Source: Flectonema sp. DT1601 (taxonomy: Eukaryota). From it: DNA of 64,000 nucleotides. The DNA lies in assembly GCA_964019425.1 (NCBI GenBank), contig OZ025789.1, forward strand, positions 930,001 through 994,000, read 5' to 3'. Shown here one piece after another: positions 12,808 to 62,872 of the stretch. The translations under genes were made by a program, and so were the position numbers. Below the pieces are notes generated by a model. It ran no database searches. It was given only the letters and a program-made list of their open reading frames with translations, and was not told the DNA's origin. The stretch's first letter is position 1. Each line of letters starts with the position of its first letter.

Positions 12808-14321
12808 TTAGTCCTCAGAGTTTATTGTTGTGTTTGGAGTTGCGCTGGCAACCTGGTTTTGGTTGTTTGTTTTCAGTCACGTCTTGGCGTTCTGTCACAG
12901 AATGATATAAAATAAATGCATACCTTAAGTCCACATCGTAGCAGGCATTGCGCAACTTGCTTCGCTGATGCTCGTTTTAGAACATTTTCAAACAGAGTCA
13001 GTTGATCATCAAGAGACGCACTCGTAAAGTCAGTCGAGGAATTACCCCCTGAGAGGATATTTGAAGAGGTGGCAGTGCTGGTTGGACGCTTTCTAGATTT
13101 GGACTTCTTCGTAGCAGCAGTGTACCCCCTGAGATATGCATCGTCTGTGATTGGTTTTAGTTCGGCTACGATGCGATTGTGAAAGGATTTCTTATTCTTC
13201 TCGAAGGTGCTTCTCAATCCCGACAGCAGCTGCACTAATTTCCAGTCGGCCATCGATTCACAATATTGGACATGAGCTCTGCACTCCTCAAGTATTATAT
13301 CTTTCCTCGAACTCATCGCTTCTGAATCGAGCTGTTTCAGTTTGCTTTGCTTTGCAACTTGAATCACAGCTCGGCATCTTTCCTCACTCTTGTTAAGTTC
13401 GATCCCGGATACAGACATATTTTTCAACGATGTATTTTCCGCTTTAAGCATGCTAATGGTAGATTTTGCTTCTCGGAGTGAGGCTGCAAGCTCACGTTGA
13501 TTTTTTTCAGACATTTCGATAGCGGAGTCGAAACCGTTGAGAAGGTTCTGTTCCACAGAACTAGTAGTGAAGTGTCGGAGTTGGTCCTGAGTGTTAGTGA
13601 GTTCTGTTCTGAGATCTGTGATGGTAGCTGACCTTTGTTTATCATCAATTTTACATTCTTCAAGTTCTCGTTGAAGTAGTTGAATGTGTTCGTATTGCTG
13701 TTTTATTTTTGAGACATGACCTTCTGTGATAACTTTATTACTCGCATTCTCATTACTATCAGCCCTGTTCGTCTCATCACGTATTCTAAATTGAGTCTGA
13801 AGTTCATCATTCTGTTGTTGATAAGATGAAATAGACCTAGCACGAGCTTTTAATAATGCGTCCTTTGCGATGACTGTTTGAGTTTGTTTTCGAAGTTCCG
13901 ATAGAAGAGATGTATTTTGTGATGTCAGTGATTGGATTTGCTTTTTGTAATTCGATGATTCGGTTCTTTGAAGTGATACCTGTTGTCTGATTGTTGAGAG
14001 GTCTATTTTAGGAATGTGATTACCTCCTCTGAATGTTAGAATAGTATCTTCCATATCAGATACTTGCTGTAGGAGTTCATCTCTCTCACGTTGAATTATT
14101 CTCACGAGTTCGCTTAGCTCTTCAACTGTTGCTCTTAGTTTTGAATTATCGAAGTATTGAACTTCCAATTCCATTCCTCCAGACATCATTAATCTGTCTC
14201 CAGATATTACTGACTTCGAAGTAGTACTTCGAGGGGATCCACCACCACCACCACCACTGCTACCAACTGATCTACTTGCTGGTGTTAATGTCAAAGGTAA
14301 CACATTCTCAGCTCCATTCAT
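12808..14321 (-). CDS. Coiled-coil protein; one predicted intron 12853-12923
   Basis: Long heptad-rich ORF. Donor AAG|GTATGC and acceptor aaacaaccaaaaccag| give in-frame last exon VASATPNTTINSED*. Confidence 0.7.
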
Positions 14322-14955
14322 TTATACTTAGCGACGAGAAGAGTGCATTTGTTGAGGATTGTTGAATGCCTGGAGGGGAAAGGTAAAAATAAATAATTAA
14401 AATAAAACAAAAACATAACTACCGACGTCAAAGATACGAGTGAAACTTCTTGTTTCTCGGTAACATAGAAACATTTCACTGAATGAAAATACGAAACAAA
14501 AGAGGACCCGTGCAGTGGTACCTGCTGATCTTCAGCTCACCAACTGCAACCGACGCGAAGATATCACGTATCAGGTGAGAGGTTGCTTTTTGATTTTTAA
14601 AAAAAAATTAAAAAAAAAAATCAAATTGCTTTTTCGAATTGTAACAATAATATATATGAGGAACAGATAGACAAAAAGAAACAAAACCGGAAAAAAAAAA
14701 AGAATTTTTTTTTTATTATTATTATTATGATTTATCTGACAAAAAAAAAAAAAAAAAAAAAAATAAGAAAATCCCCCCTCTCGTGAAATTTTAATAAAAG
14801 AAGCAATTCTCCGCTCTAGTAAAAGAGAGGCCAATTTTGGCTTTTTTTTTTTTTTTGACTACAATTTAGTGTCGATCAAAGTGGAATATTGCACATCTTC
14901 CTAAGAAGAAGAAGACGTAAAGAAACTCAGTCATTAAGTGTTTGAAGGGAAAGTG

Positions 14956-17079
14956 CTATTTCATGTCTGGTGCTGTCTGCGGCTGCGTCTGCGGCTGCGT
15001 CTGCGGCTGCGTCTGCGGCTGCGTCTGCGGCTGCGTCTGCGGCTGCGTCTGCGGCTGCGTCTGCGGCTGCGTCTGCGGCTGCGTCTGCGGCTGCGTCTGC
15101 GGCTGCGTCTGCGGCTGCGTCTGCGTCTGCGGCTGCGGCTGCGTCTGCGGCTGCGGCTGCGTCTGCGGCTGCGTCTGCGGCTGCGGCTGCGGCTGCGGCT
15201 GCGGCTGCGGCTGCGGCTGCGGCTGCGGCTGCGGCTGCGGCTGCGTCTGCGTCTGCGGCTGCGGTTGCAGCTGCGTCTTGTAGGAAGAGCTCGTGTACGG
15301 ATCTTCCTCAAACTGTTCCTTTCTAAAAACAAAGAAATACGACACAGCAGCTATAATAATAATAGCACAAACACAACCCAACACAATACCAGCAATTGTT
15401 CCAGCGCTGATGTCATCGTCCTCAGGGATGATGGGTGCTGGAGTAGCAGAACAAACCCCACCAGGACCATAGACGTATCCAGGTAAGCACTCCAATGCCC
15501 TGCAAGTATTAGAGCCCTTGAATCCAACAGTAATTAACACACCTGACTTATAAGCGCATCCGTATCCAGAAGCTTCTACTGCACCCACCAGGTACGTCGC
15601 CGATCTGTTGATGTACAACCTACCAGGACCATCAATAATTCTGCTCTCAAGATTTGCAAAGTTTGGATTAAATGCAGTTGCGACAGTCGCTGTAGCGAGT
15701 ACCGCTACTTGGACATTGTAGCTGTTTGTTTGTTTTTATGTACTAATATGTGAGTGTGTGTACACTTGCAATGCACTTCAGATATTGTAAAGGAAGTATT
15801 CAATTAAACTATTACAACAATCATGAGACGGTACTAAATTGGAACACACATGTTGCATTAACCCCCCCGGAATATCTGTTCTAAATCCGATATAAAAACA
15901 ATACGAAAACAGTACATACCTAGTAGTAGTCCCACTCACTGTTTCACAAAATTGAAATATTCTCACCTCACTAAAAAGGTTCCCAACGAGCGCTAAGAAC
16001 TCCGCCTTGAATGCCGCGGCTGTGCCATCTGTGACGTCGCAAATTACATCAAGAAATACCAACGACAGAATATATACTTGTTCTGTCAATCCTGTTATTG
16101 TTATAATGTTTAATGACTTGGTAATAACACATTCTATTAATAAACAACACTGACACACACCATTAACTATCTGTCCCTCCTCAGTGTTGAAGCAGCTGCT
16201 AAAAGTTGACGAAGCAGTCTGAGACACGGTTGTACCAACGTAGTTTTTATATATTGAGCCGGTCGTGCAACGACATGTTGCAGACTGATCACTGCGTAGG
16301 CAAGTAGCTTTTCGGTCTCCGTGTCTTCTGCAGTTGTCGTTGACGTTGCAAATTCGGAGTGTTGATGCATCTTGTATGCCCTGAGTACAAGCACCAATTG
16401 AATTAAAACCAAAACCAGGACTACAAATAATATCAGTACACATCATCAATGGACCTGATTTGAGAACTTCACGAAATCGAGCATTCGCAGTCGAAGGACA
16501 CCACAGTGAACTCGACCTCAAAAATGACAATCTGGTATAGCCAACCATCCCTCCAGCAAGGGGTGGTATTTCATTACTATTTATAGCATCACTGACAGCA
16601 GTTGGAAACAACAACAAACTGGTGTTAAAAATTCCTTTTAAAGTCACATTTAACACCATCGATGAATAGATACCTCCACTAATACAAGAATGTCTTATTG
16701 ATTTGATTTGTGGGCTGAGTTGGGACTTAGAAAACGACCAATACGAAGCCGTAACATCACCAATACCTTCACAACGTATGTTATTTGTGTAGAGAGACAT
16801 TACTAGCGATAGAGGTTTTAGTGTGTCAAAGTTCGTGGTATCCATCCGTGGGTAGCACGTCTTTATACTTTGTAAACCGTTAGAAGAGACATAGAAATCA
16901 AAATTTTCGCTGCATGAACACCATGACCTCTCTCCTTGGATTTTGCAAGATGCTCTTGAATCTCCAAAAATTTGACAATCTTCATTTATAAAACAGGTTG
17001 AGATATCACTCGGTGTGTAATCCGCAGTCGATAATAAAACTATATATAATATCCCACACAAAACATATTTATATTTCAT
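14956..17079 (-). CDS. Cys-rich type I membrane protein with PQ/TQ-repeat cytoplasmic tail; introns 16092-16160 and 15722-15919
   Basis: Signal peptide MKYKYVLCGILYIVLLS; two related Cys modules (C..N.DC...GD..A.C...C.C). Splicing joins the ORFs 15778-17133 and 14956-15618 in frame (TTTS|YNVQV). TM segment IAGIVLGCVCAIIIIAAVSYFFVF. Confidence 0.8.
14975..15278. repeat. GC-rich coding minisatellite: 12-bp (CAGACGCAGCCG) and 6-bp (CAGCCG) units encoding (QTQP)n/(QP)n
   Basis: Directly visible as ctgcggctgcgt repeats on the + strand. Confidence 0.95.
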
Positions 17080-17280: not shown

Positions 17281-20131
17281 TCACACTTTATAAAGACAAG
17301 TTCTAAGTGAGTATCCTCTCTGAGTTAATAATTTTCTCATTTTCGCGATGCAATCAGATTTCGTGAATAACATAAAACAGACAACGTAGTCAACGTCCTC
17401 GTGATCTCTGTACACCGACATCGTCATTTTTGAATTATGAGCATCAAGCTGTGTTGGTTGCCAGATGTGATTAGAAAAATGACCAGGATAGTCCCACAAA
17501 GCACCTATCTTATCACCGCATGGGTTTAAGACTTGCCAACAACGTCCAGTTGGTTTTCGACTGCATATCGACATGGGTGCTGCGAAATCAAACTCATTGT
17601 GAGATAGTCGATGGTATAAATAATCAAATGAATCAGACATAGCGATGTGTTCTAACAGCGCACCCTCGTTGTTTAAATCATAGATGGTGCAGTTTAGGAA
17701 TTTATGTGTCTTTTTACTGTTAGAGTTCGAAACGGGTACAATGAACCCTGATCTGCATTGGATGGTAGCGGACAGTACTGGTCCACAGTAAACATCTAGA
17801 GTTCTGCATGTCTTGTGTTCAATCATTGTAATTTGTTCTCTTGTTGCTGCGATGTCTGGTAAGATGTCATCTATACCTGTTGGTTGTATTATTTTATATA
17901 AAAAAGAAATTGGCTTTTATCTTAAATAACTATACAGAAAAACAGTAATATAACAACTGTGATGTGTTTTTTTGTTTGTGTCACGAAACCGACTTAAAAC
18001 TGATAAAGCTAAAGGAGGTTTACGTGTGCTGCCCAACATTCTTTTAATACTTGTTAAATGCAAAAAAGAACCATACTGTTCGTTTTCAAAAATAGAAGCA
18101 AACACATACCAATATCAGCTTTCTTACCTTCTTGTTTAGCAACAGTAACGAGAACAGATAACTCTTCAGCTGGTCTCATAGGATCTATCGATACTTTTCC
18201 AGTTTCATCAGTCGTGGTGCAAAAACATCGAATTAAGATGCGAAGAAATGATTTGAAATCAATGCATGATTCAGTTCTAACTCCAAGGTTTTGATCATTC
18301 TTACCAGACCCTGATGCACCTGATAATGGAGGTAACACCTGTTGTTGCATTACTTCTTGAAAAAATGGTTCATCACTCACTTGAGTACCATCAGCCATGT
18401 ATAGTTTTTCAACAATTCCATAATCAGTTTTAAACTTCCTCCATTTATCAAGAACTAAGAATCGAGTGTTTCTTCGATCTTTGTAACAAACTAACGATGA
18501 GAATAGTTTTTGTAATTTTGTGATGAGAGTGTCGTCGATGTACCAAACTGGACAGGTATCCCTAACAGTAAATAACTGACCAGGAACGGTCTCAGAATAT
18601 CTAACTCGATCATTACTAACATCAACTAAGAAGGTTGAGTACATTCCAATTTCTACGGTCCATAAATGAGTTTGAGTATCGTATCTGATTACAACATTTA
18701 TTTGTGAAGGTTCGACTGATGGAAGAGTCAGAGCCACTCTTTTCGGTTTCACAGTATGAGCTCGTAACGCAAACGGTGGTATTATCTTGTTTATGTCTGA
18801 GAATCTAACAAGAACGTCTCTCTTGGTACAGAAATTAGATCCATCGATAGTGACGTCGATGTCACCAGAGCCTGGAGATATGTATGGACGACAAGCAGCA
18901 TGTTCACTGTTATTTCTTAGTATCGGAACACCTTTTGGAACCCAGTCACAGTCTGATGATAATTCCCTTGAAAATATTTTTTGATAAAACGGAGAAAAAG
19001 ATCTAAACAAAGACTCAACTCTACTGGTAATAGTCGGTGACTCAACCATGTCAGTATGGACCACCATGGAAACCCTTAACATAACATCAATAAATGTCTG
19101 TTTATCAAGAAGAATATCCTGATAAGTCATCTCTCCTAAGCCTCCAGATTGAGATCCTCTCCGAGAAATATTAGCATAGGTACATTCTTGCATTTCAAGA
19201 GGTGTGTTTGGATTCACAATTATTTTTCCAAAACACGCTACTTGAAGAATTTTTGATATTTGAACAGAATTAATCAATTTTGGGTAAAGACCGAATTCTT
19301 TACAAAAATCAATGAACTCATCGACTTCGACATTCGCATCCAATACTTTTAAAACATCATAACTAAGTGTTTTATTGCCATGTTGATCCAATGATTTATA
19401 TCGTTGGAATATTCGTTCAATGGGAGCATCGTAGATGCAGAGTAGTCGATCAATGTCGAGGGATTGTAAAAGGTCATCACCAGGTTGACATCCATCATTT
19501 TGATTTCTTCTAATCGACTCGTCAACCCATTTGCTTATGTGTGTTTCAAATAATTCTTGTAGAGCATGTCGGTGTTTACCATCCAGATGCGGATGTTTTT
19601 GAAATGCTGTTTTTTTTTTTTTGTTGTTGAGTTTTTTTTAGTTTTTTTAAAATATTGGATATAATAACAAAAAAAAAAAAACCTACCAATATGAACCAAT
19701 ACTTTAGTAAAGCGAACGATGTCTAAGTTTCCTTCAGAATCAACAGACCAATCTACCAAAGTCATGTATCGGGATTGCTCTTTATCAGTTGTTATTAGCT
19801 TGCATTGTTTCGCCCAGTGTTGAAATAATTTTCTATCCATTTTCTTTTTTTCTAAATAATCACCATGATCCAAAGCATGTGAGAATAACACCATTATAAC
19901 CGAAAGCATTCCTTCCCTACCATCAGATAAGATTAGCTCAATGCTAGTTTTCTCCATGTCACCTTCTTTGTAAAGGTTATTTATCATTTCACTAATTAAT
20001 TTATTTGCGACTGAAGCAGCTGATTGCCTTCTAGCACCTCCTTCCTTTCGTACCCATGAAGCTGGAGATCCCATTCTTCGAGTACTGCTATTACGTCGCA
20101 CTGGGATACTCGCAGAGCTCATGCGACGCAT
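17281..20131 (-). CDS. Large multidomain protein with EF-hand/p25alpha-like helical modules and an IPT/TIG-like domain; introns 19607-19686 and 17877-18109
   Basis: Two GT-AG introns join three ORFs in frame (VHI|AFQKH; DI|GIDDILP). PYISPGSGDIDVTIDGSNF resembles IPT/TIG. Domain calls are tentative. Confidence 0.7.
17901..18066. repeat. Dispersed ~165-bp repeat, copy A (inside intron 17877-18109)
   Basis: Near-identical to 47354-47525 (gaaattggcttt...tcacgaaaccgacttaaaactga...aaaggaggtttacgtg...aatacttgttaaatgc). Confidence 0.9.
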
Positions 20132-25251: not shown

Positions 25252-28042
25252 TTATATTGAAGGAGGAGGATGCACACATATGTGAGACGCCTTTGAACTT
25301 CTAGACTTTACACATCCATGAATGGAGTGTAAATTGGGACAGTTCTCAACTAGATCATCCAAAGTATATTCGTCTATCAGTAAAGAACCGCAACCAGAGT
25401 TGTTAACGTGAAGCTGTTTTATTTATTTATTTTTTTTTTTTTTTTGTAATTGTTTGTTAGTATTACTCCGTGAAACTTAGTACCCATTAACAGGGTTGGC
25501 TCAACAAGAATAGTGTGGTTGAGGGAATTGAATGTTGACCAAACAGGTAGATATGCAGGGGAGGCCGCTCCTTGTTAGATCGAATTTCATCATTCCTCCC
25601 GATGCTAGAAAGTTCCTCAGTACTGATGATAATCATTGGTGTGAACTGACTAGGTTCCCAACGGGTCATTCAGCTCCAGAGATTACGCATACTCTAGTAG
25701 CAACCATCGATAGTTTTCATTGAAACTTGTTCGAAGAGCGATAAATAAAATCAACTGAGGCATTATTAGTCTGTTCGAACATTAGCGTGGACAATAACCT
25801 TCCAGAGTTGCTCTTTGGTCAGCTGCCTTCAAATAAGAGTCCCACAGGCAGTGGGGGGTTGTTCTTTCAAACTCAAAATATGATTTAAAATGGTTCTTAT
25901 TTCAAACTTCAACTTGGCTAATTGAAGTAGTTACTTTCAACTTTAACACCAAATGGACGACGCTGACCATTCCTTTTATTGATTGGCAGCTACATATATT
26001 AAGGCTAATTACACCTCTTTTTGACTTTAGTGAAATCTGAAGTTTTTTGAGTCAACCAACAGTAAACCATCACAGCTGTTGGGATGGATGACATCATTAC
26101 AAGGTTCTCAACTAATAGATGATTGATGACTTGGGATCAACAATAGGTCGTCGCGGTATGGGTTTGCGATACCTCACAAAACAAGTAAAGAGAGTAAACT
26201 CCGAAGAACAGAAAGAAAAAAAACAACAACAACACATACCACTGACAAGGTCAAATTCCTTATCAACATCAAAGGAGAGATGTGATCTAAAAACAGACTG
26301 AGAGTATGAAGACTTGTGAGATTTGCTATGGAGTGAGCGACAGATTCTCCGATTTTACCAGGCAAGTCCAACACCAAAACCCTTAAGTGAATACAACCAG
26401 TCAACGATGAAGCTAAATCCTCTTCACTCACAGGTATGTCACGAAGAGTTAACTCTTTCAAACCAAACAGATAAAAAGGAATGCTTTGCGCTAGAGAACA
26501 GCAATTTTCAAGTTGTAAGATCTCTATTGTGTCGATAGTCAGAAGGATAGTTTTTACTATGCTAGAAGTAACTAGATAGTCGTTAGTTAAGTTTAAGTAT
26601 CTCAGCATTGGTGGTTGTCTAACCTTCCTTACTATGGATACAAGCATTGATGGTGCTGACAGTGAGATCAAACGACTTGCTAAGACGTCAAGAAGATCTT
26701 GTGTTGTGATGTGAGATGTACCAAACAGTAACACACTACTCAGTGATGGTAATCTATTTAAAATAGAAATCCAGTCTAAGTCCGTCTGTGGTTGGATTGT
26801 GTCCGTATCCCAACAACCACAATCATTAATTTCAAGGTACCTTATCGAGTTACTTTTCAACTCACGCATTATGTCACAGGAGTCGTCTTCTAAGTCTACC
26901 AAAACTAGTTCCCTCAGAGAAGTGCAATAGTCGCAAATCGCTCTGTACGATCCTTTTGGAAAAAAACTCAAACTAGTAAAACAAAGAGTTACCAAATTTT
27001 CAGGAAATGAATAACTTCGAAGAGACTCAACAGTTAGTTTGAATTCTGTTCGTGTTGCGAACATCCTTCTCCCATCTAATCTCAATGTTTTTAAATTCTT
27101 TGGTAAATGCGAAAGCAATGCTGGTGTTGCAGCCTCACCACAAGCAAGCAACAACTCCGACAAAGATTCCAACTTGGGTAAAACATCCAATAATTCCTGA
27201 GTGAAGTCAGTATGAGGATCGCTGTCAATAAGTACCATTGATAGTACTTTGAGAGTTTCTGAACAATTTTTTAAACTTGAAATTAATGTTTCTCCCTCAT
27301 ATCGACTTAAACCAGAAATCCACATGTCGAGGTCTTCCAAACGAGTAATATTAATTTGATCTAACAAAGACCTTCGAATATCACTGTAGCCGTAAACTGA
27401 TAATCGTTTGCATCGATTTCGAAGAGGAGGGATATCCGTATCCGCATCAATTTTAAATTCTTTTAAATTATCTAACTTCGCAATGACATCTGCGGGTACC
27501 ACAGGACCCCATATACATTCTAAGTTAGGAAATTGCGTATCCCAAGGGATGATTTTTAAATCGTTAGTATCAATGTTGTTTGGTAATCCGAGATGCTTCA
27601 GTTGAGGTAAAGATGGAATATTCTCTATGAAACCCTTTACTGATATGTTAACACAGCCACGTAGGTCTAAGTGATACAAGTTTGGAAGATTTTTTAATTG
27701 CGGAAGTGATTCTTCAGTGATCGACGTCCATCTTAAATCCAATTTCTCAACCTTATTCCCAACAATACTCTGCAGAGATTGCACACCTTCTATTCCTTGT
27801 AGATTTAATTCCTTCATTTGTGTTGTTAATTTGCTTGATACGATTTCCTTATTCATTAGTTTTTCAAGTAGTTTTCCCGGAATCGAACTGGCGATATCGC
27901 CAACAGAGACTTTTTTATCGCCAATCCATTCTTTTAACTTGTGTATACAGGCACCCTTTAGACCGAAGAATCCACCTGCCTGGCACTGTCTCTTATAAAA
28001 ATCAAAGGCGGTGGTTCCCAGAAATGTTTCTTGGCAGTCCAT
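25252..28042 (-). CDS. Leucine-rich repeat protein (FBXL/RNI-like repeats); intron 25414-26239
   Basis: Many LxxLxLxxC repeats; ATG at 28042 after acceptor ttatttcatactctag. Donor GTG|GTATGT joined to acceptor aaataaaacag gives in-frame last exon LHVNNSGCG...LVENCPNLHSIHGC...PPPSI*. Confidence 0.8.
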
Positions 28043-29027: not shown

Positions 29028-30737
29028 CTATGCTGGAGTGAGAGGTGCCTCAGCTGCTGGAGATTGTGGTGCTTCTTGAGAGGCCACAGCCTTCGTAGGA
29101 GTAGTAGAATCAATGTCCATACTGCCTTCCTTCTCTTTAAGAGCAGGGTTAACCCATATTTTATTTCCTTTGTGAAGCACTGAGGCAGCTAGAGGTGCAT
29201 TTACTTTTTTCGCAAGCGCAGCTTCCTGAGCAACCTTTTGATCTTCTGTTAGTAATGAAGGGTTCTGCCACACCATGTTACCAGTGTGAGCAGGAGCTGC
29301 CTTCTTCCCACTCTTGTGTCCACCCTTTACCCCTGCACCTCTTCCTCTACCCGGAGCAACACCAGGTGCAGTGTACCTGTTGGTTGGTTGGTTGGTTATA
29401 ATTAGTTGAAGTTGTTTTACTCTTTACGATTCTCTGAATAATATAAAAGAAAAAGACCGATATAGTGATACAAGAATGTTACTTGCAAGAGCTGGAAGTG
29501 GAGCGAGCAGGTGAAGGTCTCAACCAACTGAGGTCATCGGACGGGCAGGAGGACTCCAGAATGGAAGTAGACGATGGCCCAAACCAACGGACTGAAGGGC
29601 AGGGCTTGACTCTGCTCCAAGGTAAGGTGACAACTTTAGGAGCGTGAGTGGATCCAGGTAAGGATGTTTGGAGACTCTGGAAGCCTGGCACTGGTGCAGG
29701 CAAAATTTGAGGCAGACGCCATCATAATTATATTGGAAATGCAAATAAAAGCAAACGCAAGATAATACATACACCATGTTACCACTTGACCACTGCTTCC
29801 AAGGTGGGATTGATGCTGCTGCAGTTGTTGGTGCGGTCACACCCTTACCTCCTTTGCCACCTTTTCCTGCCAACCACCAAGGGGCTGGTGGCTCTTCAGC
29901 AGTAGCTGGTTTCGGTGTGTTGTAGTGTGAGATGTTTGGTATGTCAGAATCTTCTATTTTATTTAATGTAATTGTGAACTTCGTTTGACTGTCGTCAGTG
30001 AGTGCTGGTTGAGTGAGAAGCGATCTGTCAACAGCTGGGACTACGTTCAGATGAACAGCACCTTCTGGAAGATCAAAACCGGCACCTTTACTATCTGTTA
30101 TAGTGAATCTGGTTGAGGCTGAAGAATCTTGTTTTTTAGTTTTTTTTTCATCCTCTTTGCGACGTCTGCGACGGTCGCGGTCACCTCTACGTTCTCTGTC
30201 ACGATCTCTGTCTTTATCGCGGTCATCTTTTCTTTCCCGACGGCGTTCTTCACGGTCTCGGTCTCGTTTTGTATTATCGCGAGTTGCCCATTGTAATGCG
30301 CTTCTGAAGCTTTTTAAATTTGGTTGTTCTCGGACTTCTCCAGCCAGGTCGTCTGCGGAGACGCCTCCCGAGCGATCGAAGTCTCTTGGTCTGTCTACTT
30401 CCATATCGTCATCAGTTGAGGCTTCTTTCCTCTTTGAGAAGGCGGAGTGAGTTCGAGCTGGATTCCTATCCGCAAGCATCTGCCATAGCCAATCAACAAA
30501 ACGTGGAGCTTCGTCAAATAAAAACACTTTTAGATCTTCTATGACTTGTGGCTTTTGTTTTGCATTACACACAATAACTTTAATATACTCTGGTAGGATG
30601 GACGAGATTGTTTCTACAGATCCAGCATGTGAATATTCATCTTGTAATTTTCTCTTTATCTCTTCCTGAATTTGATTAGCCAGTTCTGAATCAGCCTGCA
30701 ATATCAACGGTGGTCCATCTTCCGTAGGCATAGCCAT
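29028..30737 (-). CDS. PWI-domain RNA-processing protein with R/D-rich and RG/KG-rich regions; intron 29377-29772
   Basis: N-terminal LPEYIKVIVCNAKQKPQVIEDLKVFLFDEAPRFVDWLW resembles the Nab2/ZC3H14/RBM26-type PWI domain. Splicing gives SSGNMV|YTAPGVAPGRGRG, in frame with ORF 29028-29276. Confidence 0.8.
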
Positions 30738-31893: not shown

Positions 31894-32551
31894 TTATTTC
31901 TTTGCATTCTTCGCACTCGCAGTGGCATTCGAATCGGATTCGAATTGTTCTTTAATTGCTTTTACTTTTGCTAGCAGTTGTCTTACCTTTGGATTCTTAT
32001 CAATCACCTCTGCTGCTTTGCTAGGTTCTGTTTTTTTTTATTTTTTGTTTATAAAGAGATACAGATCAACTAAACTAAAGGTGCGGTTCATTAGCAACTT
32101 ACTCAAACATACCTCTTGCGATTGACTGAAAGTGTGAAGCGGTGTCCATGTCTTGGAGATCGTCAATCAGAGATGGGTCTTTTCGAACGTACGGAAGCAT
32201 CGCTTTTATTTCTTCTTCTTTGAATCCAGGAGTACCTCTCAGCCGATTTACAAGTTTTTTATCTTCATAATGAGCATATTGCTTTGAATCTGGAACCGGG
32301 TCTTCCGGTTCGGGTTCGGGTTCTGGTTCATTGACGAGAACAAATCCTGTTTCATCAAGTTTTTTTTGCATTTTTACTTCTTGTTTTGCCGCATGGTGCA
32401 TAACTCTCGCTCTAGCTGCTTCTTTTTTTTCAGCAGCCGTTGGAGGAATGTCTACTAAAACGAAGCCGGTTTCATCTGCACCTCCCGATATTGCTCTTTT
32501 ACTTATGGAGTGCCATAATCTGGTACTTGAGATTCGGAGTCTCGGGTACAT
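31894..32551 (-). CDS. Putative mitochondrial protein with STI1/DP-like C-terminus; intron 32028-32112
   Basis: Arg/Ser-rich presequence-like N-terminus; duplicated DETGFVLV. Spliced C-terminus KDPSLIDDLQD...FQSIAR|EPSKAAEVIDKNPKVRQLLAKV resembles STI1 motifs. Confidence 0.65.
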
Positions 32552-32718: not shown

Positions 32719-34233
32719 TTATTCAAAACATTTCATAGTCCAGATTACTTGCTTGCTAAGAGGGAGTGGTTCTTCGTGCAGAGGGAGGCCTGATGATCGT
32801 CGCAATCGACTTTTTGTTTTAGTTTGATTGAGTTGTCGTATCTGAGGTACAGTAGCGGATATCAATTGCGTTGATGGTTCATAAGAATCGCAATATGATT
32901 TGGGAGATTGCTGTTCTTGATCATCAGTTTCCGTTGGTGTTGATATCGGAAGCCGTACCCTGGAAACTCCATGAGCTATCCATTCAAATCTCCCACATAT
33001 CCAACTCCCCTCACCTCCATAGATCGATTGAAAGTCTTGACAAAACGATCCCAACGCTTGCAATTGAGGTAGCGTTTCAACAGAAGTCGCAACTTGAAAT
33101 TTTTTCAAACAGATCGGACATAATAACGATTTTGAAGAATCGTTAACATCCTCAATACCATCCTCATTCATTAAACAAATAAAAACATAACAATGTTTCA
33201 ACCCAAGTGAATGCAGCAATAAGTGCGCAGCATAACGACATACTCGTTTAGATAACCACATGTACCAAAGATCACCACCACTGGAATATCCATTTTGAGA
33301 AAAGTGTCTCGCAGTAGCAGGCTCATCGTCGTTAGCATCTGACTGTCCTGTCTCTTTTAAGAAACTTGGCATTAATCTTTTACCATATAATGTTCTGGGG
33401 TATCCAAAAAATGAAGGTTCGAGTCTGGCGAATGACAACACAGCAACGCCATTTTCTGATGAACTGCCAACGCAGTGATTGACTGCAGGATCCTTGTAGA
33501 GATCAACGTGAGTGATTCCGATGGTACAAAACGCATCAGCAGGAGCCTTTAACTGAATCCATCTTAAAAGGTCAGGAGCGTACTTCTGAATCCTCCTTCC
33601 CGGTGGATTGTTTTCATTAATCCGAGTACGTATAACAGATTGTGGATATTGAGAGAAGGCTGGGTTTACACTTTGTGGCTGTTGTTGTTATTCTTATTTT
33701 ATTACACGTTTTTACAAATATATCGATGGGAAAAAAACAAAAAAAAAAGAAGAAAAAAAAAAACGGACCTTTTTTTTGACCGGCAACGGCTGTGGATCCA
33801 ACAGTATGACAGGAATTCCATGAAAGAAAGCACCGAGATATCTCCGTAGGATATCAAGCTGTGGAGGAATGATTGAAGGTACTGCTTCTGGAGTAGCGTC
33901 TTGTCTTCCTTTTCGGAAAGAGTTTGTTCGGAGTTGTGTTGCTGGAGAACTGCTGAAGCCGTGGACCCAACATTGTCCCAGAGGCATGATATAGATAATA
34001 TTACGACCGTTTAGGGAGGCACTTTGTGGTCGTTTTTGTTTGAAGTTGGAAACAGTTTGAACTTCACCTGAAGAAGGACCATATGCTCTGAAGAACTCCG
34101 GATCCCAATGAAAGACTCGCTGCTCTTCTATCGGAGCCGTTTCATCGACGGCATCCCAACACATGGCTTCTGCTGCTCCTGCTGGTGCTGGAACTTCATT
34201 CCTCGGCTCCTCCGTCCTACGAGGGAAGCCCAT
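32719..34233 (-). CDS. Archaemetzincin (peptidase M54) homologue lacking the catalytic Glu; intron 33679-33768
   Basis: IYIMPLG, PADAFCTIGITHVDLY, SFAR and HLLLHSLGLKHC...CLMN...LCPICLKK motifs. The intron joins ORFs 33712-34245 and 32719-33441 in frame. Confidence 0.85.
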
Positions 34234-47525: not shown

Positions 47526-48024
47526 AAAAAAAGAGGGAAAAAATGGTTTAAGGTTTTTGTTTTATGAGTGTATACACAATAAATTCCAAAAAAAAAAAAA
47601 AAAAAGTTTAATTTTCAAAATGGAAAAAAATCATTATCACTCCAACAGCACCATAATTTTTTTGTTTTTGTTTTTTTTACATATTATTTTTTTTTTTTTT
47701 TGCTTCTGATAATTATTTTCACTTACTTCGGACAAAAGATTAAAAGGGAACGTGGACTAGAGTTGTCTACTTTGTTGGACAAGAGAAGGAAGGGGTAGGT
47801 GCAAATAACTACCTACAAGTAACAACAAATTTAACAAGATCACAAAGGCATGGCAAATAATATGTGAAACATTAAAGCATCACGGTGAGACTGTTCGAAG
47901 CCTTGGCATCAACAACGATTGAACAACGACAAATAAAAAAGAGAAAAAAAAAAAGAAAAGAAAACAAATCTAAGGACGGAGAGAGAAAAGGGAAATTATA
48001 ATGACACATAACTTAGTACAACTA

Positions 48025-48149: not shown

Positions 48150-48655
48150 CCATAGTGGCGTCACTAATTCTAGTCGGTTATCACGGTTTTTAACGAAGGA
48201 AGAGTTCTCCTAGACCGGGTAGTGCAAGATCGCTACGTCTGGTGCGTGCACTGCGGGGGTGGCACTGCATTAATACAACATTTGGATAGCAGCTTTCCCG
48301 TAGGATTGAAGACTTTCACAAACGTGCACCAATACAGAACTTTGCCCTCGTGCACATACGTATCCTACACGGTCTGCAGAACCAGGGCCTGAGCAAGCTC
48401 ACGGCACCCAGCATGTAGGCGCGTCGAATACGACCAGACAACTTAATGATAGGACTGATGAGGAGAATCATGAAGTTTTGAACGGATCTCGTACTCTTAC
48501 CACTCACCGGTTTCAGGGACTTTTAACCCTCTTTTCAAAGTTCTTTGCATCTTTCCATCACTGTACTTGTTCGCTATCGGTCTCCGGGAGATATTTAGCC
48601 TTAGCAGAGGGATACCTGCCAATTAGCTCAGCATTCCCAAACTGAGCGACTCTTG
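48150..48655 (-). pseudogene. Isolated fragment of cytoplasmic LSU (28S) rRNA: conserved core between D1 and D2 (about 48500-48655) plus probable D2 sequence
   Basis: Minus strand reads GAGTCGCTCAGTTTGGGAATGC...GCTAAATA...GAGACCGATAGCGAACAAGTACAGTGATGGAAAGATGCAAAGAACTTTGAAAAGAG, the universal LSU motif. No other rDNA nearby; the lower boundary is estimated from GC content. Confidence 0.9.
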
Positions 48656-48826
48656 CTGACCAGAGAACCAATTTATACATAGGCAACAAATTCTCACTTA
48701 AAAAAAAGACAAGTCTCACTCGATGGCGTGAAAAATATAAAAGTAATAATAAAAAAAAAAATTACATCTTTTTTCTTTTTTTCTTAGAAACAAACAAGAC
48801 GGCGAGCAACAATTTTTTTGTGCACA

Positions 48827-48886
48827 AAACTGTGAACCGACTTACACCGATGAAGCCAAAGGAGGCTTGCGTGCTGCCTTGTTAAA
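48827..48886. repeat. Diverged partial copy C of the dispersed repeat
   Basis: aaactgtgaaccgactta...gccaaaggaggcttgcgtgctgccttgttaaa matches the core of copies A and B. Confidence 0.7.
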
Positions 48887-49186: not shown

Positions 49187-51546
49187 CTAAATATGCCTCG
49201 AGAGAATCTCCATCCGGTCGGCAGGCATCGCGAATGATGGCCGTTGCTGTTTTTTTGTTACTTTTTTTTTTTTTTTTTTTTAAAATTGATAAAACATCAA
49301 ACAAAACAAAAACAAAAAAAACAAACCGATCTCGGAGTTGTCCTACTCGGCCGACCAGGGAAATCAGTCGGAGAAAGAAGAGCTGTATTTGCTCGTTCCC
49401 TTCGATGTGGTTTAATAGAACTAGTAGGAGCCTGTTCAAGTTGACCAGATTTGAATTCATTTTCTAAACTAACAAGTGCAGCACTGAGGTCAGCATCACG
49501 TATTCTACGAGTTGGAGTTTTTGCTCCATCTCTGTTTGATTTTGGTGGTACAAGATCACGTAGTTCAGAATCCAAACCATACTCTGCACTTGCTCGACGC
49601 TTTTTTCCAGATGATGATCGACGACGAGGTGGTTTCTTAGCATCAACCACCGAGGATCTACGAGAACTTCTCCTCGATGATGGAGCAGAATGACTAACAG
49701 GAAGAGTACCAGAAGATCTTCTTCTCCCCGACAAGTTGCTAACCATTGAGTTGACCCTCTCTCTTGGTTGTAATTTATCAAATCCTGGAATGGGTTTTAT
49801 GTGTGTTTGGTTAACAATAGTTCCCATTTCAATATTTTCAGTTTCCGGATAATTATTTGATTTTTGTACTTCAGGTAACTTATTAACTACGTCTTTATGT
49901 GTTGGTGTCACCCTCTGTGATGGTGGTTGAGATGAATTTGGTATCGATCCAACAGGTTCTATTTGAATAACATTGTGAGAAACTCTTTCATCAGAACTCC
50001 CTTGAAGTAGAGTTGATAGTAGTTTTGGTTCATTATTACAGTCGTTTGTCGTCTTCGGTGTCTTTGTCACATAACAAATAGCAGCTGCCATAAACACACA
50101 TAAAAATGCACATCCCACAGCCACTCCAATAATAGTTTCTGTAGGTAATTGACTATCTTTTGATCCAGAATTCATAACCTCACAGTAGTCACCGTACCAG
50201 TTTGGTTGGCAGCTGCAGATGCAGCCTCCGTCAATAATGGTAGCACTGACTGCGTGATTAGTACAATTATCTACTTTTGTACAAACAAGACCACCATTTG
50301 GAGTACTAAGACAGCTTCCCTTTAAACAAACAGTGTTGTGGTTTGGAATAGATTTACACCTACAGAAACCATCACTAGCAAGACTGGATTGTGAATCACA
50401 AGACTGATGAAGAAGCGGAATGATATCACACTTCGCAGTAGTTGCAGCACTGAGTCTCTCGCATATCGAAGACGGGGCTCCTGGACATGCAGTTCCTTCT
50501 GCTACAGACTTAACTGTTTTTGATTCTCCTGCATAGCAGTTTGATGACTTCACTTGATACTCCATGGCTTTACCTTTACACTCAGATGGCATGTATTGTT
50601 CAGGTTGACTTACTTTCTTACAATATGTTGCTGCGCTGACACATAAATCAGCCTCTTCACAAGTGAGGTGAGAATAAGATGTGAATTCACTAGTTAGTTG
50701 GTGTTCATCCCAAGGATGACCACCAACACAGCACGTTGGTGATGTTGAGTTTCCGCAGGTGTTTGTGACGGTACCTCGTCGAATGCATGAGCATGACTCT
50801 GTTGAGCACTTAGTGTTGATTTCACTTGTAATTATAGGATCAGTTTGAGTTCTTTGGTATTCCCAACCACAGTCTACACTTCCCTCAGGGATGACGGCAT
50901 GGGCGGCACTTAAGTCTCTACAAATGTCATTCTGATCACAGGTATTGTTGTCCTTATCGACTGTAACTTTAGTACTGCAGGAGTCAACAACTTTTCCAAC
51001 TTGTTTTTTAACACAATTCCACAAGGTGTCACAGGTTGCAAGTCCCTTTGTATACTTAACCCAAGCTTTAATATCACAAGGATTGTTACTGCAGCGTTCT
51101 ATTTGATCACAGGATGCCTGAGAATATTTTAGTACTTCTGGACGGTCAACTAATTTTGAGTTATCTTCAAAAAGAGTATCTGGTGAAGTAGAAGACTTAC
51201 ACAGTCCTGTTGATGCATCATACGTTGCTGGACTACCAGCACAGATACAAACTTCAAGAGAGCATTTGTCTGCTTCTGCTCTAAGTTCTGCAGGGTCGGG
51301 TGTCCATGATGACGGTGCCAGTGTTAAGCTAGACATACACCTTGACATTAATGGTTCACAACCCTCTGCGAAATTAATACTTAATTCATTAGCACCCCTC
51401 GAGTTACGTTGCTGTCCTCTTTGCAGTACCATACTCCTGAATAACTCTTCTAGTACGTCTGCGTTACCAGCACTTGTAACAATGCATAGCCAAGCAAGCA
51501 TCAGTATCTGAAGCAGTGCAGTCGGCATGTTGGTTGAGTTGTTCAT
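49187..51546 (-). CDS. Cys-rich type I membrane protein with a membrane-proximal EGF-like domain; intron 49247-49326
   Basis: Signal peptide (MPTALLQILMLAWLCIVTSA), many Cys, EGF signature CICSCQPNWYGDYCE, TM IIGVAVGCAFLCVFMAAAICYV, Arg/Ser-rich tail; spliced end PRS|QRPSF...RHI*. Confidence 0.8.
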
Positions 51547-51790
51547 TCTCGTGAACTGATGTGAAAGAATAACATTATACACGTCAAGGAATATTTTTGT
51601 CGTAAAGTTCAACTGAAAAAAAAAGGAGGTCCACTTCATAATGTCGCTGTGAAGGAATAAAGGATTAAGAATTATAAAAACAAATTGACCGACAATAAAA
51701 AAAAAAAATAACAAATATAAGAATATAAGAATATAAGAATAAAAAGTTTGTGTAAATAATAAACATCTGACCACTGAATCATGAAAAGGA

Positions 51791-55710: not shown

Positions 55711-56513
55711 TTTTATAGCAACTGTTAGGGGGAATGAATATCACAGAGCGATACAACAACTCAAAATATAACAATCGCGTGGTGAAGCAACCCTAAGAAC
55801 AACGATCACATTCCGATGGCTTCCACAGTGATCGACTAGCCGAGTTACGCTGCGGTAGCCATCTGCTTCCTGAAGTGAAGGTGAAAATAATATAAATCAG
55901 TAGAATATTCGCAACCGTTATCACGGTCGAAAGTAAGACAGAAACCCGAAAAACGGGAGAACACTGTCCCTTTTGTTTTGTTTTGTTTTACACGTCGGTA
56001 ACGAGGTTAATTGTAACAAAAAGAAAAATAAAATTAAAATAAAACAAAAAAAAAAAGGCAAGCTGAAAGCACAAGCAGCTCGCGAACAACAAGAAAATAA
56101 AATGCAGCACGCGGATTTCACCCATTCATAAGTTTTTTTTTTTTTTTTTTTTTTTTTCCCGGAAAACCGAAATCCAGAATGTCTCTTCCAACACTCCTTT
56201 TTTTTTTTTTTTCAAGGTTTTTTTAATTATTTAGTTCTGCCTCTTATTTCAATCAAATCAGCACATGTACGCTATAAGAATCAGTAAATGCGGTAAAAAT
56301 TGCTTATCCCAAAGGAGGACAAAATACTCACTACTCCAGTTACCAACAGCTATGAGAAATAATCAGTAAACGAGTGCAATTAATTAACGAAAAGAGAAAC
56401 CAAAAAGTGTGGCAATTACTTTATAAAAAATTAAAGAGGAACTGCAGACACGCATGGCAAAGAAATAATAGAAAATTAAAAAAACGTTTTTTTCTTTTTT
56501 TTATGTCAACAAA

Positions 56514-57944
56514 CTAGAAAGGAGTACCCTTCAGGTATCTCGAGTAGAATGTGAAAGCAGCGATTGGCTGGAACTGAGGAACCATGTGTCCAGCAAGACG
56601 GATAGTGATGAAAGAGAAATCCTTGTCTCCCTTAGTTGGAGTGTAGGTGGTGGCGTATCCGAGTGGAATACCTCCGGCATCACCAAACCATGGGTGCCAT
56701 GCCTTCTTCTCAGTGGCAACTCCAGCGGTAACCATGGAAGTGGTCCACTCTTCGTTACCCTTGTAAGGAACACAAGCATCAGAGTCACCGTTGTAAATCA
56801 AAACTCTGATCTTTCCGATCAAGTGTGGGTACAGAGTAACGGAAGCTGGTCCACTGGTAGAGTAGCTGAATCCAGAAACTCCTGGCTTTCCCAAGTGAAG
56901 AGCCTTCTGGACGTCGTCTCTCTGGAAGTAAGCAGCCATGGCAGCCATACCACCACATGACCAGTCGTATCCTCCTCCCAAGGCCTTCAACTCAGCGGCT
57001 GCTGCAGCAGGTCTGTGAAGGTTGTCTCTCAAGTAGTTTCTAAGGAAGGTTTGACTCTTACCAGATCTCATAACCCATTCTTCAGTCTGAGGACAGTTGT
57101 CATAGATATCGTAGATGTTGTAAGGACCAACTTCATTGTTCATTTGGTCGAGAGCTTGACGGCATCCAGCGGATCCAGTGTTTGGGAAGTTGCATACTTT
57201 GTAGATCTGTTCGTAAAGCTTCTTTGATACGAGTCCCTTACCGTAGAACATGTCGACGTCGTTCTGCTCGGAGTTTGGTCCGTTGCAGTTCACGTTTCTC
57301 GCGTCACCTCCCCAACAACCGTTTCCAACAGCAATTCCCTTCAAGTTTGGAAGAACGTTGTGGGTGGTGATGTAGTAAGCGATGTTTGGAATGTACTGTC
57401 CAGCGTATGACTCACCAGTAAGGTAGAGATCGTTGTTCTTGTACTCAGGGAACTCACTGAAGAACTGCTGAAGGGTCTTGGCGTAAGCCTCAGCCTGGTT
57501 GGTGTCATTCCAGCTGCAGGTGTGCTGAGGCTGGTTGTTGATCAAACAGTAAGAGAATCCAAGTGGATCATCAGAACCAGCAGGTGACTCAAGGTAAAGC
57601 ATGCTGCTAACACGGTTCCATGCCTGGCTGTTGACGTACTGAGAAGTGGAGTTCAACTGAAAGTATCCCATCTCAGCGTAAGCTCCAAACAAAGAGGATC
57701 CACCAGGACCTCCCTGATGCCAAGTTGAGATTGGGTCAGTCGCTGGGTTGTTCTGTGACTCATGGAACTGGTAGTGAACCTTTAGCTCATCGTATCCAGC
57801 AGCGAATGGTCCCTTCACAGTGAGGTATCCACTGTACACCTTGAATGGTGCTTTTGGGAATCCAGGAAGCTGGTCGACGAGATCCGCAGCAGGGGCGGCC
57901 ATCGTGCATCCCAGGGATGCCAAAAGCGCAGCAGCGTAACGCAT
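56514..57944 (-). CDS. Serine carboxypeptidase (S10), copy 2
   Basis: Same motifs as copy 1; one amino-acid difference (LNTTSQ vs LNSTSQ). Confidence 0.97.
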   Translation of the reverse strand: MRYAAALLASLGCTMAAPAADLVDQLPGFPKAPFKVYSGYLTVKGPFAAGYDELKVHYQFHESQNNPATDPISTWHQGGPGGSSLFGAYAEMGYFQLNSTSQYVNSQAWNRVSSMLYLESPAGSDDPLGFSYCLINNQPQHTCSWNDTNQAEAYAKTLQQFFSEFPEYKNNDLYLTGESYAGQYIPNIAYYITTHNVLPNLKGIAVGNGCWGGDARNVNCNGPNSEQNDVDMFYGKGLVSKKLYEQIYKVCNFPNTGSAGCRQALDQMNNEVGPYNIYDIYDNCPQTEEWVMRSGKSQTFLRNYLRDNLHRPAAAAAELKALGGGYDWSCGGMAAMAAYFQRDDVQKALHLGKPGVSGFSYSTSGPASVTLYPHLIGKIRVLIYNGDSDACVPYKGNEEWTTSMVTAGVATEKKAWHPWFGDAGGIPLGYATTYTPTKGDKDFSFITIRLAGHMVPQFQPIAAFTFYSRYLKGTPF

Positions 57945-58255
57945 TTTTATAGCAACTGTTGGGGGGGATGAATATCACAGAGCGATACAATTCACAAACC
58001 TCAATCACTAAATAGAACCTCAACGCCAACCTCTCATATTATTAATAAATTAAACAAGTCCTAAAAAACAAGTAGTAATAATTACAAAACCACACCACGA
58101 GATAGTCTTGACGCAGTCTCTGAACGGCGTCTATGAATAGAATCCCCAGAGCTAGAAGGGAATTATTTTATTTTATTTTTTAAAAAGACAGTTCCAAGCT
58201 ATTATGAAAAAAAAAATAAATAATAATAATAATAATCTAAAGAAGGCAGCAGATC

Positions 58256-59266: not shown

Positions 59267-60844
59267 ATTGATTGCCTGAGAGATAATAAAAAAGAAAAAT
59301 AATATCGATTGATATTCCACATTAAAATACGTTCTGTATGACTCATACGATGAAAACATTATTGTAAGCTGCAAGGTGTATTGTTACATATTTATGAATA
59401 ATGCTTTCAGTCAACACGGAGGCGGAAAAAACAATCGCACCCGCAGCACCAAAAAAGATTTGTAGTACCTTGTTCTGTGAGACAGACAGAAAAGATGTAC
59501 GTTTGCATTTTTCACGTAGGATGGGGATGAGTAATATAGGAATTCAAGACACGCAAGACGATAAAATGCACCAATCCAACAAAAAAAAAAAAAAACTCGG
59601 AGAAATTTCAAAAAGAACGGGAAAAAAAAATGGAGAAAAAAAAAATGATCCAAGATCTATGTGATGAGGCTAATCCACAAAAGAATAGATGGAAAAACTT
59701 TTCATTTCATTCTTTTTTTTTTTTTTTCCTTATTTTTTATTTATTTTTTTTTTTTTTTTGCTTTTCCTTAAACACTCATCTCATCCGTTGCTGTATCTTA
59801 AATTTTATTTTTTAAAAAATATAATAATAAAACGCGCATATCGTAACTTCAATTACCCCCTTTTTTTTTTTTTTTTTTTTCCTTTTTTGTTGTTGCACCG
59901 ACGAAGTCGAGAAGAAACTATTCAGATTAAGAGCCATTATTTATTATGTCATGGTATCTACTTCAGATTTGCCAACAAAATGTAAGGCTTACCTGAATGA
60001 ATGGCTCTTTTTTTATAAACTAACGAGGTACACTTGACAACCAAGACACAGGCTCTATTCGCGTTGTGAGAAAAAAAAAAGCTACTCTTTTAATTTTTTT
60101 TTCTTTTTTAATAAGCAGCTATGATGTTTTTTTTTTTTTTTTTTTTCCCTCATTTTAATTTTCAATTCTATTTTTTTTTTTTTTTTTTTTTTTTTTCCCT
60201 CTGGCCGATCAGCAGGTTTCATTGAAGACAATCAATGAAGGCTTATTAGTACGGTAAAGATAAGATAGTTACACAAGAGTCTCGCTACTTGAAGAAATGA
60301 AGGCTGACCTGTCCACACAATATTCTTAGATTCGGGTGTTTCGAGTGGGTTGTCCCTTCTCATTCCTTTTTTTGATTCCACGCACTCGCGCTGTCTGTGT
60401 GTTTTTTTTGGGTTTTCTGAAAAGCATAAGAAATCAATAGGCAAGACTGCCAGATGAAAAGGGAAAGGGGAAAAAAAAACAAAAAGGTCGGTGGATTTCA
60501 TTAATTGGCGGCAGCTTCTGCAATTTTAACTAATGAACAATTGCTAGTGATTACCAACTGCGGCAGAGAATAATACGCACAATCAACCCAATGACAGCGA
60601 TTCTCTCGTTTTTGCGAGCAGATTTTTTGATACGGCTCCCTTGACTGATTCTAAAAATTGTTTTTTTTTTTTTTTCCTGATGTACGGACTACGAACCAAA
60701 ATTCAAAAAAAAAAAAAAAAAAAGAATAGCTGTATGCGGTGAGTAGACTATCCTTCTCACCAGAGAAATCGAACAGCGTAAAGTCTTCTACACAAGAAGG
60801 CCATCTACGATTAATCAATACTTGCTCTGATGGTGTTATTTACC

Positions 60845-62872
60845 TTACTTGCAAAGAGCAGACTTGGGACCGGCATATGAAAATCCATTAAATTTACCAC
60901 CAGAAGTGTCTTTTGTTCCAGGCTCGTCATCTCCACCTGGGAGGTCAGTTGCTTGTTTAGTGAATTCACTGTCAAAATATTTCGTATCTGACTCACCCTT
61001 ATGAATCGACGGTATAAACTCTGGCTTGTAATTCCTTTTATATAATTCTTGAAAGTCAATACCACTGAAGAACGGATGGCTTTTTAATTTTTCGATGTCA
61101 CACATTCTCTGTTTTGGATCTCTATCAAGAAGCTTTGTTAAAATATCTCTAAGAGGGGCTGACACAAAGGATGGGAACTCAAGAGGTTTATTTAATATCA
61201 ACTGATACATCTGACTAACATTCTGTGTGTAGAATGGTGGAATACCCACCACCATTTCATATAAGAATATCCCCAAACTCCACCAGTCAACTGCTTGGGT
61301 ATGACCTTGTTTCATAACCAATTCTGGAGCCATATACTCTGGTGTACCACAGAAGGTATAAGTCGTTCCCTTAACGTTAGTTTTAGCTAAACCAAAGTCT
61401 GTAAGCATTACGTGACCTTCGCCATCGAGTACCTGTTTTTTTGTTTTGTTTAATAAAATGTTCTTTAAAAAGATCGATTCCTCACAAATACAATCACATA
61501 CCAAGTTCTCCGGCTTCAGATCTCGGTATATAACACCAAGCGAATGGAGATGAGACAACGCTAGAGAGATTTCAGCTGTGTAGAAACGAGCACGGCTCTG
61601 TTTGTTTGTTTGTTTGTTTTTTTCCCGTTCTTTTTCGTACAAGTGTTAATACTTTGCTTCAACCAACAACATACTTCACTAAACCTCTTACTGCGTTGCA
61701 GGTGATAGAATAGCTCTCCTCCAGAGAGGAAGTCGAGGATGAAGATAAGTTGTTTTTTAGTCTGTTTGTTTATTTAATTTTTCTACCCTATAATACATAT
61801 CCAACAAAGATGACTCACTCTTACATACCTGAAATGCGTAGTGGAGGTTAACGACGAATGGATGGTTGACCATTTCTAATATCATCTTTTCAGCATTAGT
61901 GTGAGCAACCATTTTGTTTTGAATGATTTGATCTTTATTGAGGACCTTCATAGCATACACTTGTGCTGATTCACGATGTTTAACTTTCATTACCTTACCA
62001 AAGCTTCCGATACCCACAACGCAAACCAAGTCGAAGTCTTTGAGGCCGAGAGTCTTTCGGCCGTCAGTTCCTTCGGCAGCCTTGTCAGCTTGTTTTGAAT
62101 AGTATTGTTGTGCCATGTCAGCGTCTTCTACACCTTCTAGCTCACCGATACCCTTGTTTCCTGGAAGCTCACCGCCGCTTGTTACTGCTTCAAGGTACTT
62201 CCACCATCTCTGTTTTTCCTTTTCACAATCATCAGGTTTCGCATCATCACCCACAGCCGCTGTCAATACATATGTCCTCGGTAAGCTGGGACCCATTAAG
62301 CAGAATGCATATCTGTACATCGTACAGTCAACTACTTTAGTATTTTTTAGTGGAATTGTTCCAAGTCTTTTCCCACCTTGTTTTTCATGATAGTGAAGGT
62401 TGTCACCTCTTATTTCAAACCAACGAGTTTTAAAAGGGTCTTTAAAAGCAACGGTCCGGGCACCCAATTTTCTCAGGTAGCCACCGCCACCGAAGAGACC
62501 GAGCAGTGCCCTGAACTCCGATGCAGAATTAAGTCCGTTACAATGCTTAACTTGTGCTAGGAAATCCTCTAATTGTCTTCTTCTCTCTTCAACGAATTTT
62601 GGATCAAACCTTCCAAATGTCTTCTTTGGTGGAGGTTCTGGTAAGTGTGGCAACCCTAACTCTTTACTCTTCTTTCGTAGTGCCTTAAACGCTTCTTCAA
62701 ATTCTCTAAACCTCCTCCAACAACTAGCTAACTCAGACCCACTCCTCTCTTCTCTTATACTTACTTTATAAACCATAAAGTCACTCTTCTTAGTAGGGTC
62801 AGTTACATGAACAGTCATAGAATTCCAATCAGGGTCGGAGAGATCAGAGGGAGGCCCATCCCCCATAGTCAT
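60845..62872 (-). CDS. AGC Ser/Thr kinase with PX and PH domains (Akt/SGK-like); introns 61762-61828, 61598-61674, 61433-61501
   Basis: PX (WRRFREF...PEPPPKK...[11 protein letters not shown]), PH (GYLRKLG...FKTRWF...RWWKYL), kinase ([28 protein letters not shown]) and hydrophobic motif FNGFSY. Three GT-AG introns restore one frame. Confidence 0.92.

Follow-up and report, generated by a model that had tools for sequence, protein, structure and literature searches.

Adenine-rich tracts at the 3' ends of GT-AG introns in a diplonemid related to Flectonema

A polypyrimidine tract typically, but not obligatorily, precedes the terminal AG of U2-type introns. The question addressed here is how 3' splice sites (acceptors) are read where this tract is replaced by runs of adenine. 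We analysed a stretch of 64,000 nucleotides (nt) from Flectonema sp. DT1601 (contig OZ025789.1, positions 930,001 to 994,000; hereafter the window), in which an initial annotation had described 13 coding-region GT-AG introns on the minus strand that end in an A/C-rich tract, and had proposed that another factor or RNA structure reads their acceptors. Our results show that the A-rich acceptors are a real feature, of a kind already known, here present in a further diplonemid lineage.

The 13 acceptors, from 12853 to 61762, were confirmed at their exact positions on the minus strand and all are CAG. Over the 156 bases at positions -15 to -4 of these sites, A accounts for 117 (75%), C for 24 (15%), T for 13 (8%) and G for 2 (1%). 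The tract is better described as A-rich than as A/C-rich; at acceptor 19607 the position was right and the sequence had been abbreviated, the actual A run being longer. A is found at -5 and C at -3 in 13/13 introns and A at -4 in 12/13, and 12 of the 13 introns end in AACAG. The absence of a polypyrimidine tract was likewise confirmed, with none of the 13 introns having at least nine pyrimidines at -15 to -4 and a mean T count of 1.0. At least seven A in the 12 nt before the acceptor were counted in 12/13 introns, compared with 22/174 intergenic CAGs and 44/798 other CAGs within gene spans. This excess has a binomial p of about 2e-10 against the intergenic rate, and of about 4e-6 for the six sites placed by homology (6/6).

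In other respects the introns are ordinary. All 13 have GT-AG ends and donors of the U2 type, with the consensus G|GTATGT: GTATGT was found in eight and GTATGC, GTAGGT, GTCCGT, GTTTGT and GTGTGT in one each, so that GTATG is present in 9/13. At the donor, G occupies +5 in 13/13, T occupies +6 in 12/13 and G occupies -1 in 11/13. Intron lengths range from 67 to 826 nt with a median of 80 nt. The short introns are polar, the first quarter being 60% T and the last quarter 77% A and 8% T. YTRAY branch-point-like words occur within the last 60 nt of six of the 13 introns, at no fixed position.

The A-rich sites might not be splice sites at all, or might reflect a choice of A-rich AGs by the eye that selected them. 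Three of the 13 sites are unproven and the motif itself may have led to the sites. We therefore ranked all GT/GC-AG pairs around each break by how well they aligned to homologous proteins, blind to the motif. The A-rich AG ranked first in five of the six introns tested in this way, and removal of the intron gave a continuous protein in all six. Judging from these alignments, six introns are required by homologous proteins, which refutes the objection for those six; in addition, no intron with a pyrimidine tract could be shown in any of 28 gene models. We consider it very improbable that the pattern is an artefact.

Three of the six belong to a PX-PH AGC kinase gene (62872-60845, minus strand, as for all introns below). 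Intron 1 (61762..61828; 67 nt, GTATGT...AACAG) was the best of 76 pairs, intron 2 (61598..61674; 77 nt, GTATGT...AACAG) the best of 84 and intron 3 (61433..61501; 69 nt, in frame) the best of 64. All three junctions align without gaps to six homologues, and retention of intron 3 would insert 23 extra residues directly after the catalytic loop. The fourth is the intron of a peptidase M54-like gene (33679..33768; 90 nt, GTCCGT...AACAG), whose retention leads to a stop. Its junction is spanned by Lacrimia and one further homologue, and splicing yields 474 aa, the length of the Lacrimia protein. Here the A-rich pair was second of 165 (2258 against 2271 for a pair with the donor GTTTTT), in a poorly conserved stretch.

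The two remaining introns lie in the gene at 20131-17281. The first (19607..19686; 80 nt, donor GTAGGT) was the best of 79 pairs and its junction is spanned without a gap by a transcript-derived protein of Sulcionema specki. The second (17877..18109; 233 nt) contains a dispersed repeat. Both of the top two among 335 pairs use acceptor 17877, and the score does not decide between donors 18103 and 18109. The D. papillatum protein DIPPA_09325 spans the 18109-17877 junction, which rules out the alternative that exon 17877-17281 is a separate gene.

Four further introns are likely: their donors match the consensus, retention leads to a stop and the exon that follows is plausible. The first (32028..32112; 85 nt, GTATGT...AACAG) would give a stop after four codons if retained, and the exon downstream of it (43 codons) scores as coding. 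In a PWI-domain gene, a 396-nt intron with an internal stop (29377..29772) is followed by an exon of 115 codons that also scores as coding. The intron of an LRR gene (25414..26239; 826 nt) has TACTAAC about 50 nt before the AG and precedes a last exon of 53 codons that lacks a Met. The fourth (15722..15919; 198 nt, GTATGT...AACAG) precedes a 254-codon frame whose first Met is residue 253 and which encodes a transmembrane-like segment, and which must for these reasons be an exon. In a Pfam scan of the small exon pieces, no domain with a useful score was seen to extend over the junction at 32028, 29377 or 25414.

The other three are possible introns. At 49247..49326 (80 nt, donor GTTTGT) GC is 0.15, compared with 0.50 and 0.56 in the flanks, and at 16092..16160 (69 nt, donor GTGTGT, in frame and stop-free) it is 0.28, compared with 0.43 and 0.46. 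The consensus donor is the sole support for 12853..12923 (71 nt, GTATGC...ACCAG), the retention of which gives a 16-residue tail instead. Both 12853 and 49247 are unproven because their last exons are tiny (14 and 19 residues, respectively) and retention simply gives another short tail. Thus the claim that all 13 are coding introns stands for six with homologues behind them, is supported by frame and composition for four and is unproven for three.

To extend the search we used a gene finder that knows only a bare AG, for breaks in coding potential, together with a scan for AT islands. The gene finder was noisy, fused neighbouring genes and often chose nearby alternative sites; the AT-island scan flagged 11 of the 13 introns. 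Across the 28 gene models the two gave one weak extra candidate (38833-38777, minus strand), a possible fourteenth intron of 57 nt, in frame, with the non-consensus donor GTAGCT and an A-run set back from the CAG. It may be merely Lys/Asn-rich coding sequence.

The best named relatives of the window proteins are diplonemids (Flectonema, D. japonicum, Sulcionema, D. papillatum and Lacrimia). A protein search with the phosphatase of the window gave matches in Flectonema neradi (70%), D. japonicum (46% and 45%) and D. papillatum (45%). Apart from the entry of the window itself, the middle exon of gene 20131 had matches in Sulcionema specki (43%) and D. papillatum (37%) only. The peptidase M54-like exon matched Lacrimia lanifica (48%) and one further record. 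In a phosphatase tree of 21 rows, built from this single gene with its paralogues, the window protein is sister to one F. neradi paralogue with support 100/99. By its phosphatase sequence the host is a Flectonema-related diplonemid, a placement that rests on this one gene. Identity with D. japonicum or F. neradi was rejected, as the searches with the phosphatase, the gene 20131 exon and the M54-like exon all lacked a near-identical match beyond the window's own entries.

Whether such acceptors had been described in this group, which the initial annotation could not tell, can be answered: they have, in the diplonemid D. japonicum. From RNA-seq data, Thakur et al. 2025 (PMC12621601) report that C is favoured in the tract of the diplonemids they studied, with the exception of D. 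japonicum, in which A is most frequent, and that L. lanifica and R. humris show a weak A signal. Donors are (G)/GTATG and introns end in CAG. The canonical introns of D. japonicum thus resemble those of the window in their GT-AG ends, donor, terminal CAG and A-dominated tract, here again in a diplonemid host, and differ in species and in length, being shorter (median 41 nt, compared with 80 nt here). As the A-tract was already published for D. japonicum, the present case is a second lineage and not a discovery. The main text of that paper gives no mechanism for the A-tract, and a search of it for 'spliced leader', 'outron', 'SL RNA' and 'Flectonema' returned no matches. We found no literature on the mechanism or on cis versus trans acceptors in diplonemids, on which the supplements of PMC12621601 and Additional file 1 of PMC10161547 may bear.

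What, then, reads these acceptors? With a pyrimidine tract in none of 13 introns, ordinary U-tract binding by U2AF65 is unable to explain them, as the initial annotation had reasoned. A stretch with 60% U does exist at +7 to +26, long introns included. It stays adjacent to the donor in introns of 198-826 nt, which disfavours the idea that it is a displaced pyrimidine tract.

The same polarity suggests that the U-rich 5' part could pair with the A-rich 3' part, bridging the splice sites and bypassing U2AF65. There is a precedent in zebrafish (AC)m-(GT)n introns (PMC4691745), which resemble those of the window in the opposite composition of their ends and the lack of a usable pyrimidine tract, although their polarity is reversed. 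One intron of the window (19686-19607) forms a perfect end-to-end stem of 17 bp (z -3.66). We folded the 11 introns up to 250 nt against shuffles and this was the sole clear end-to-end stem; one of the 11 fell below -2 and the other ten had z between -0.17 and +1.48. In three introns the tract is predicted to be unpaired, with a pairing probability of at most 0.10. The mean pairing energy was -5.39 kcal/mol for own ends and -5.69 kcal/mol for swapped ends, so that own ends had no advantage (permutation p 0.66, and p 0.39-0.82 over five window settings). Specific pairing as in zebrafish is therefore seen in one intron only, and the initial proposal that RNA structure reads the acceptors was not borne out as a general rule. 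End-pairing as a general mechanism was rejected on the swapped-end and folding results and we regard it as unlikely, while a loose U-A pairing arising from composition alone may still occur. We also found no sign of the euglenozoan nonconventional intron type among the 13, all being GT-AG, with pairing of the terminal 9 nt no better than in swapped ends (p 0.64).

In Trichomonas and Giardia the branch point and acceptor are fused into a single element. A similar element, TAAC or TAAAC near the AG, could be read here by SF1 and U2 snRNA. Such words are found about 10-25 nt from several AGs, and TACTAAC and CTAAT lie upstream of 25414 and 29377. The spacing is not fixed, however, and the counts contain no conserved T column. 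YTRAY is present in fewer than half of the introns, as given above, and the introns ending at 61598 and 19607 lack any T in the last 20 nt. This makes a fused element slightly more doubtful still than end-pairing.

It is also conceivable that no protein reads the tract. The donor, the intron length and the terminal CAG would then suffice, and the A-run would be a G-free, unstructured spacer filled by slippage and supplying branch adenosines. Homopolymer runs of A and T are plentiful between genes of the window, in T. brucei any A can serve as the branch point, with no consensus (PMC9639853), a tract is missing from many S. pombe introns (PMC8624252) and few diplonemid introns have a branch motif (about 14% of introns in D. 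japonicum; PMC12621601). Yet slippage should produce T-runs no less often than A-runs (the intergenic sense strand has 6653 T and 5045 A), and this is not what the A-dominated last quarter of the short introns shows; nor does a passive spacer fit the invariant A at -5 or the skipping of A-rich decoys. The decoys are seen in the confirmed intron 18109-17877, where two A-rich AGs, one of them CACAG at 17957, are skipped in favour of the terminal AACAG, which points to sequence-specific reading. We consider the spacer an appreciable but minority prospect. The A-rich CACAG decoy is carried by a repeat of about 175 nt, found inside this intron (17900-18070) and between genes (47353-47528) with 88% identity.

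The reading that we prefer, with a probability of about 0.5, is that a U2 spliceosome removes these short GT-AG introns and that the A-tract and AACAG are read by a U2AF of shifted specificity, not by RNA pairing. The donor would pair with U1, and both ends would be recognised across the short intron. The terminal (A)ACAG would be read by U2AF35 and the A-tract bound by a divergent or paralogous U2AF65. The branch A would lie within or just before the tract, and the G-poor tract would exclude competing AGs. The reader could plausibly be another factor instead of U2AF. D. japonicum retains U2AF1/2 despite its 'atypical poly(A) tracts' (PMC12621601), which makes a changed U2AF as likely as its replacement.

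There are precedents for a protein reader. In Fritillaria borealis, a divergent U2AF2 paralogue (U2AF2-beta) binds intron ends rich in A and has a preference for weak pyrimidine tracts (PMC13326754). Fritillaria is an animal with mostly non-GT-AG introns, whereas the window introns have canonical ends. In Fusarium, FgRbp1 recruits the small U2AF subunit through a motif of its own (PMC8113354). Among diplonemids, the supplement on P. papillatum (PMC10161547) lists an orthogroup gained in diplonemids, OG0019132 (DIPPA_35898), under the label U2AF large subunit. It stands beside the universal one, which has three copies in S. specki and four in H. phaeocysticola. OG0019132 is present in three of the four tabulated diplonemids; its label is automatic and we take it as a lead only.

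All long reading frames that start with ATG are on the minus strand of the window, as would fit polycistronic euglenozoan DNA. In such DNA, acceptors for the spliced leader (SL) are expected above start codons, as in Trypanosoma brucei, which resembles the window in its one-strand polycistronic genes and in a pyrimidine-leaning sequence before the AGs above start codons (PMC9639853). We compared 25 predicted starts (three of 28 were dropped as duplicates). The word YYYYCAG was found 12 times in the 2,500 nt before these starts and 14 times in 17,541 nt of intergenic DNA elsewhere (p 2.5e-5), while YYYYTAG was not enriched in the same regions (2 vs 14). For each gene we took, within 150 nt upstream, the AG that has the longest stretch free of other AGs. 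This gave 25 candidate SL acceptors, which have 1-5 A at -15 to -4, compared with 6-12 for the cis sites, without overlap of the ranges. CAG ends 17/25 candidates and 29/89 control windows (p 0.002), which suggests that the rule catches real sites. Two pyrimidine-rich candidates found by this rule are 14370..14395 (minus strand, 48 nt before the ATG at 14321) and 51647..51672 (minus strand, 7 nt before the ATG at 51639, in an AG-free zone of 118 nt). A further candidate SL acceptor, C-rich and ending in AACAG, lies in the identical upstream portion of two serine carboxypeptidase (S10) genes in tandem (54281-55756 and 56515-57990), which are 99% identical, with the identity extending about 46 nt above the ATG.

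In gene-start regions the cis-type tract is thus absent, and short words of pyrimidines followed by CAG are present. These words may be SL sites that differ functionally from cis acceptors, as far as predicted starts allow such a reading. SL acceptors in the same polycistronic RNA would then keep a U/C-leaning tract, and the A-tract would keep internal exons from trans-splicing. SL addition in trypanosomes is signalled by a pyrimidine tract followed by AG and is impaired by purines in that tract (PMC9639853), so that an A-tract could exclude it. A full two-code system, in which A-tract AACAG marks cis-splicing and YYYYCAG marks SL addition, each with its own U2AF65 paralogue on the same spliceosome, is a tentative extension that we consider less likely than not.

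Several observations weigh against the shifted-U2AF reading and its cis/trans extension. Compared with control windows, the trans candidates show no significant excess of pyrimidines (p 0.10) and no significant deficit of A (p 0.68; at least seven A in 0/25 candidates and 8/89 controls), and A-rich CAGs do occur upstream of starts (4/75). In Euglena gracilis, a euglenozoan that splices both in cis and in trans, has CAG ends and likewise lacks the usual U-rich tract, one C-rich tract serves both processes (PMC11170887); in the window the tract is A-rich in cis, which does not seem to hold in trans. Pyrimidine tracts are also present in the cis introns of kinetoplastids (PMC11613528), and together these two cases show that coexistence of the two processes does not require a split. 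OG0019132 is absent from R. humris (PMC10161547). Finally, poly-A before AG is common between genes on both strands, and an acceptor matrix passes 55 sense sites (13 of them the training sites) and 40 antisense sites. The tract alone is thus an insufficient signal and slippage could feed it; a nearby donor would also be needed, which fits recognition across the intron. Intergenic A-rich CAGs at 42752, 43886, 60395 and 63909 (minus strand), those scored having no strong donor within 300 nt, are possibly acceptors of introns in untranslated regions.

The window contains further features outside the introns. A two-gene unit is duplicated in tandem with 93% identity (1539-5143 and 5520-9135) and encodes a GPR180/TMEM145-like membrane protein and a secreted-looking protein without a Pfam match. 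A GC-rich repeat of 6/12 nt (14960-15280) encodes an Asp/Ala-rich cytoplasmic tail past the transmembrane segment of gene 17079. A degenerate tandem repeat with long A runs (30895-31393) lies directly upstream of the PWI gene, and a (TGAC)n array directly follows the stop at 37538. A degenerate fragment of eukaryotic large subunit (LSU) rRNA is found between genes (48215-48833, minus strand; Rfam RF02543, 129.9 bits, model positions 24-664). A second small piece lies around 63260, where 37 nt are shared with the fragment (63245-63281). A tRNA-Leu(CAA) gene (63450-63533) is found at the upstream end of the gene cluster, on the plus strand, opposite to all protein genes, and is adjoined by an imperfect inverted repeat (63555-63773); it may mark a cluster boundary.

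Predictors trained on pyrimidine tracts will overlook A-tract introns, and two genes of the window do indeed stand in the database as unspliced fragments. With a second diplonemid lineage, the A-tract is either an older trait within Diplonemidae or has two origins. It raises the question of what spares internal exons from the spliced leader in a cell that is rich in introns and fully trans-splicing. If cis and trans tracts differ in composition, this exclusion becomes testable, and the difference would also show how far the specificity of U2AF65 can shift. If the two-code system is true, a single spliceosome would separate intron removal from gene separation.

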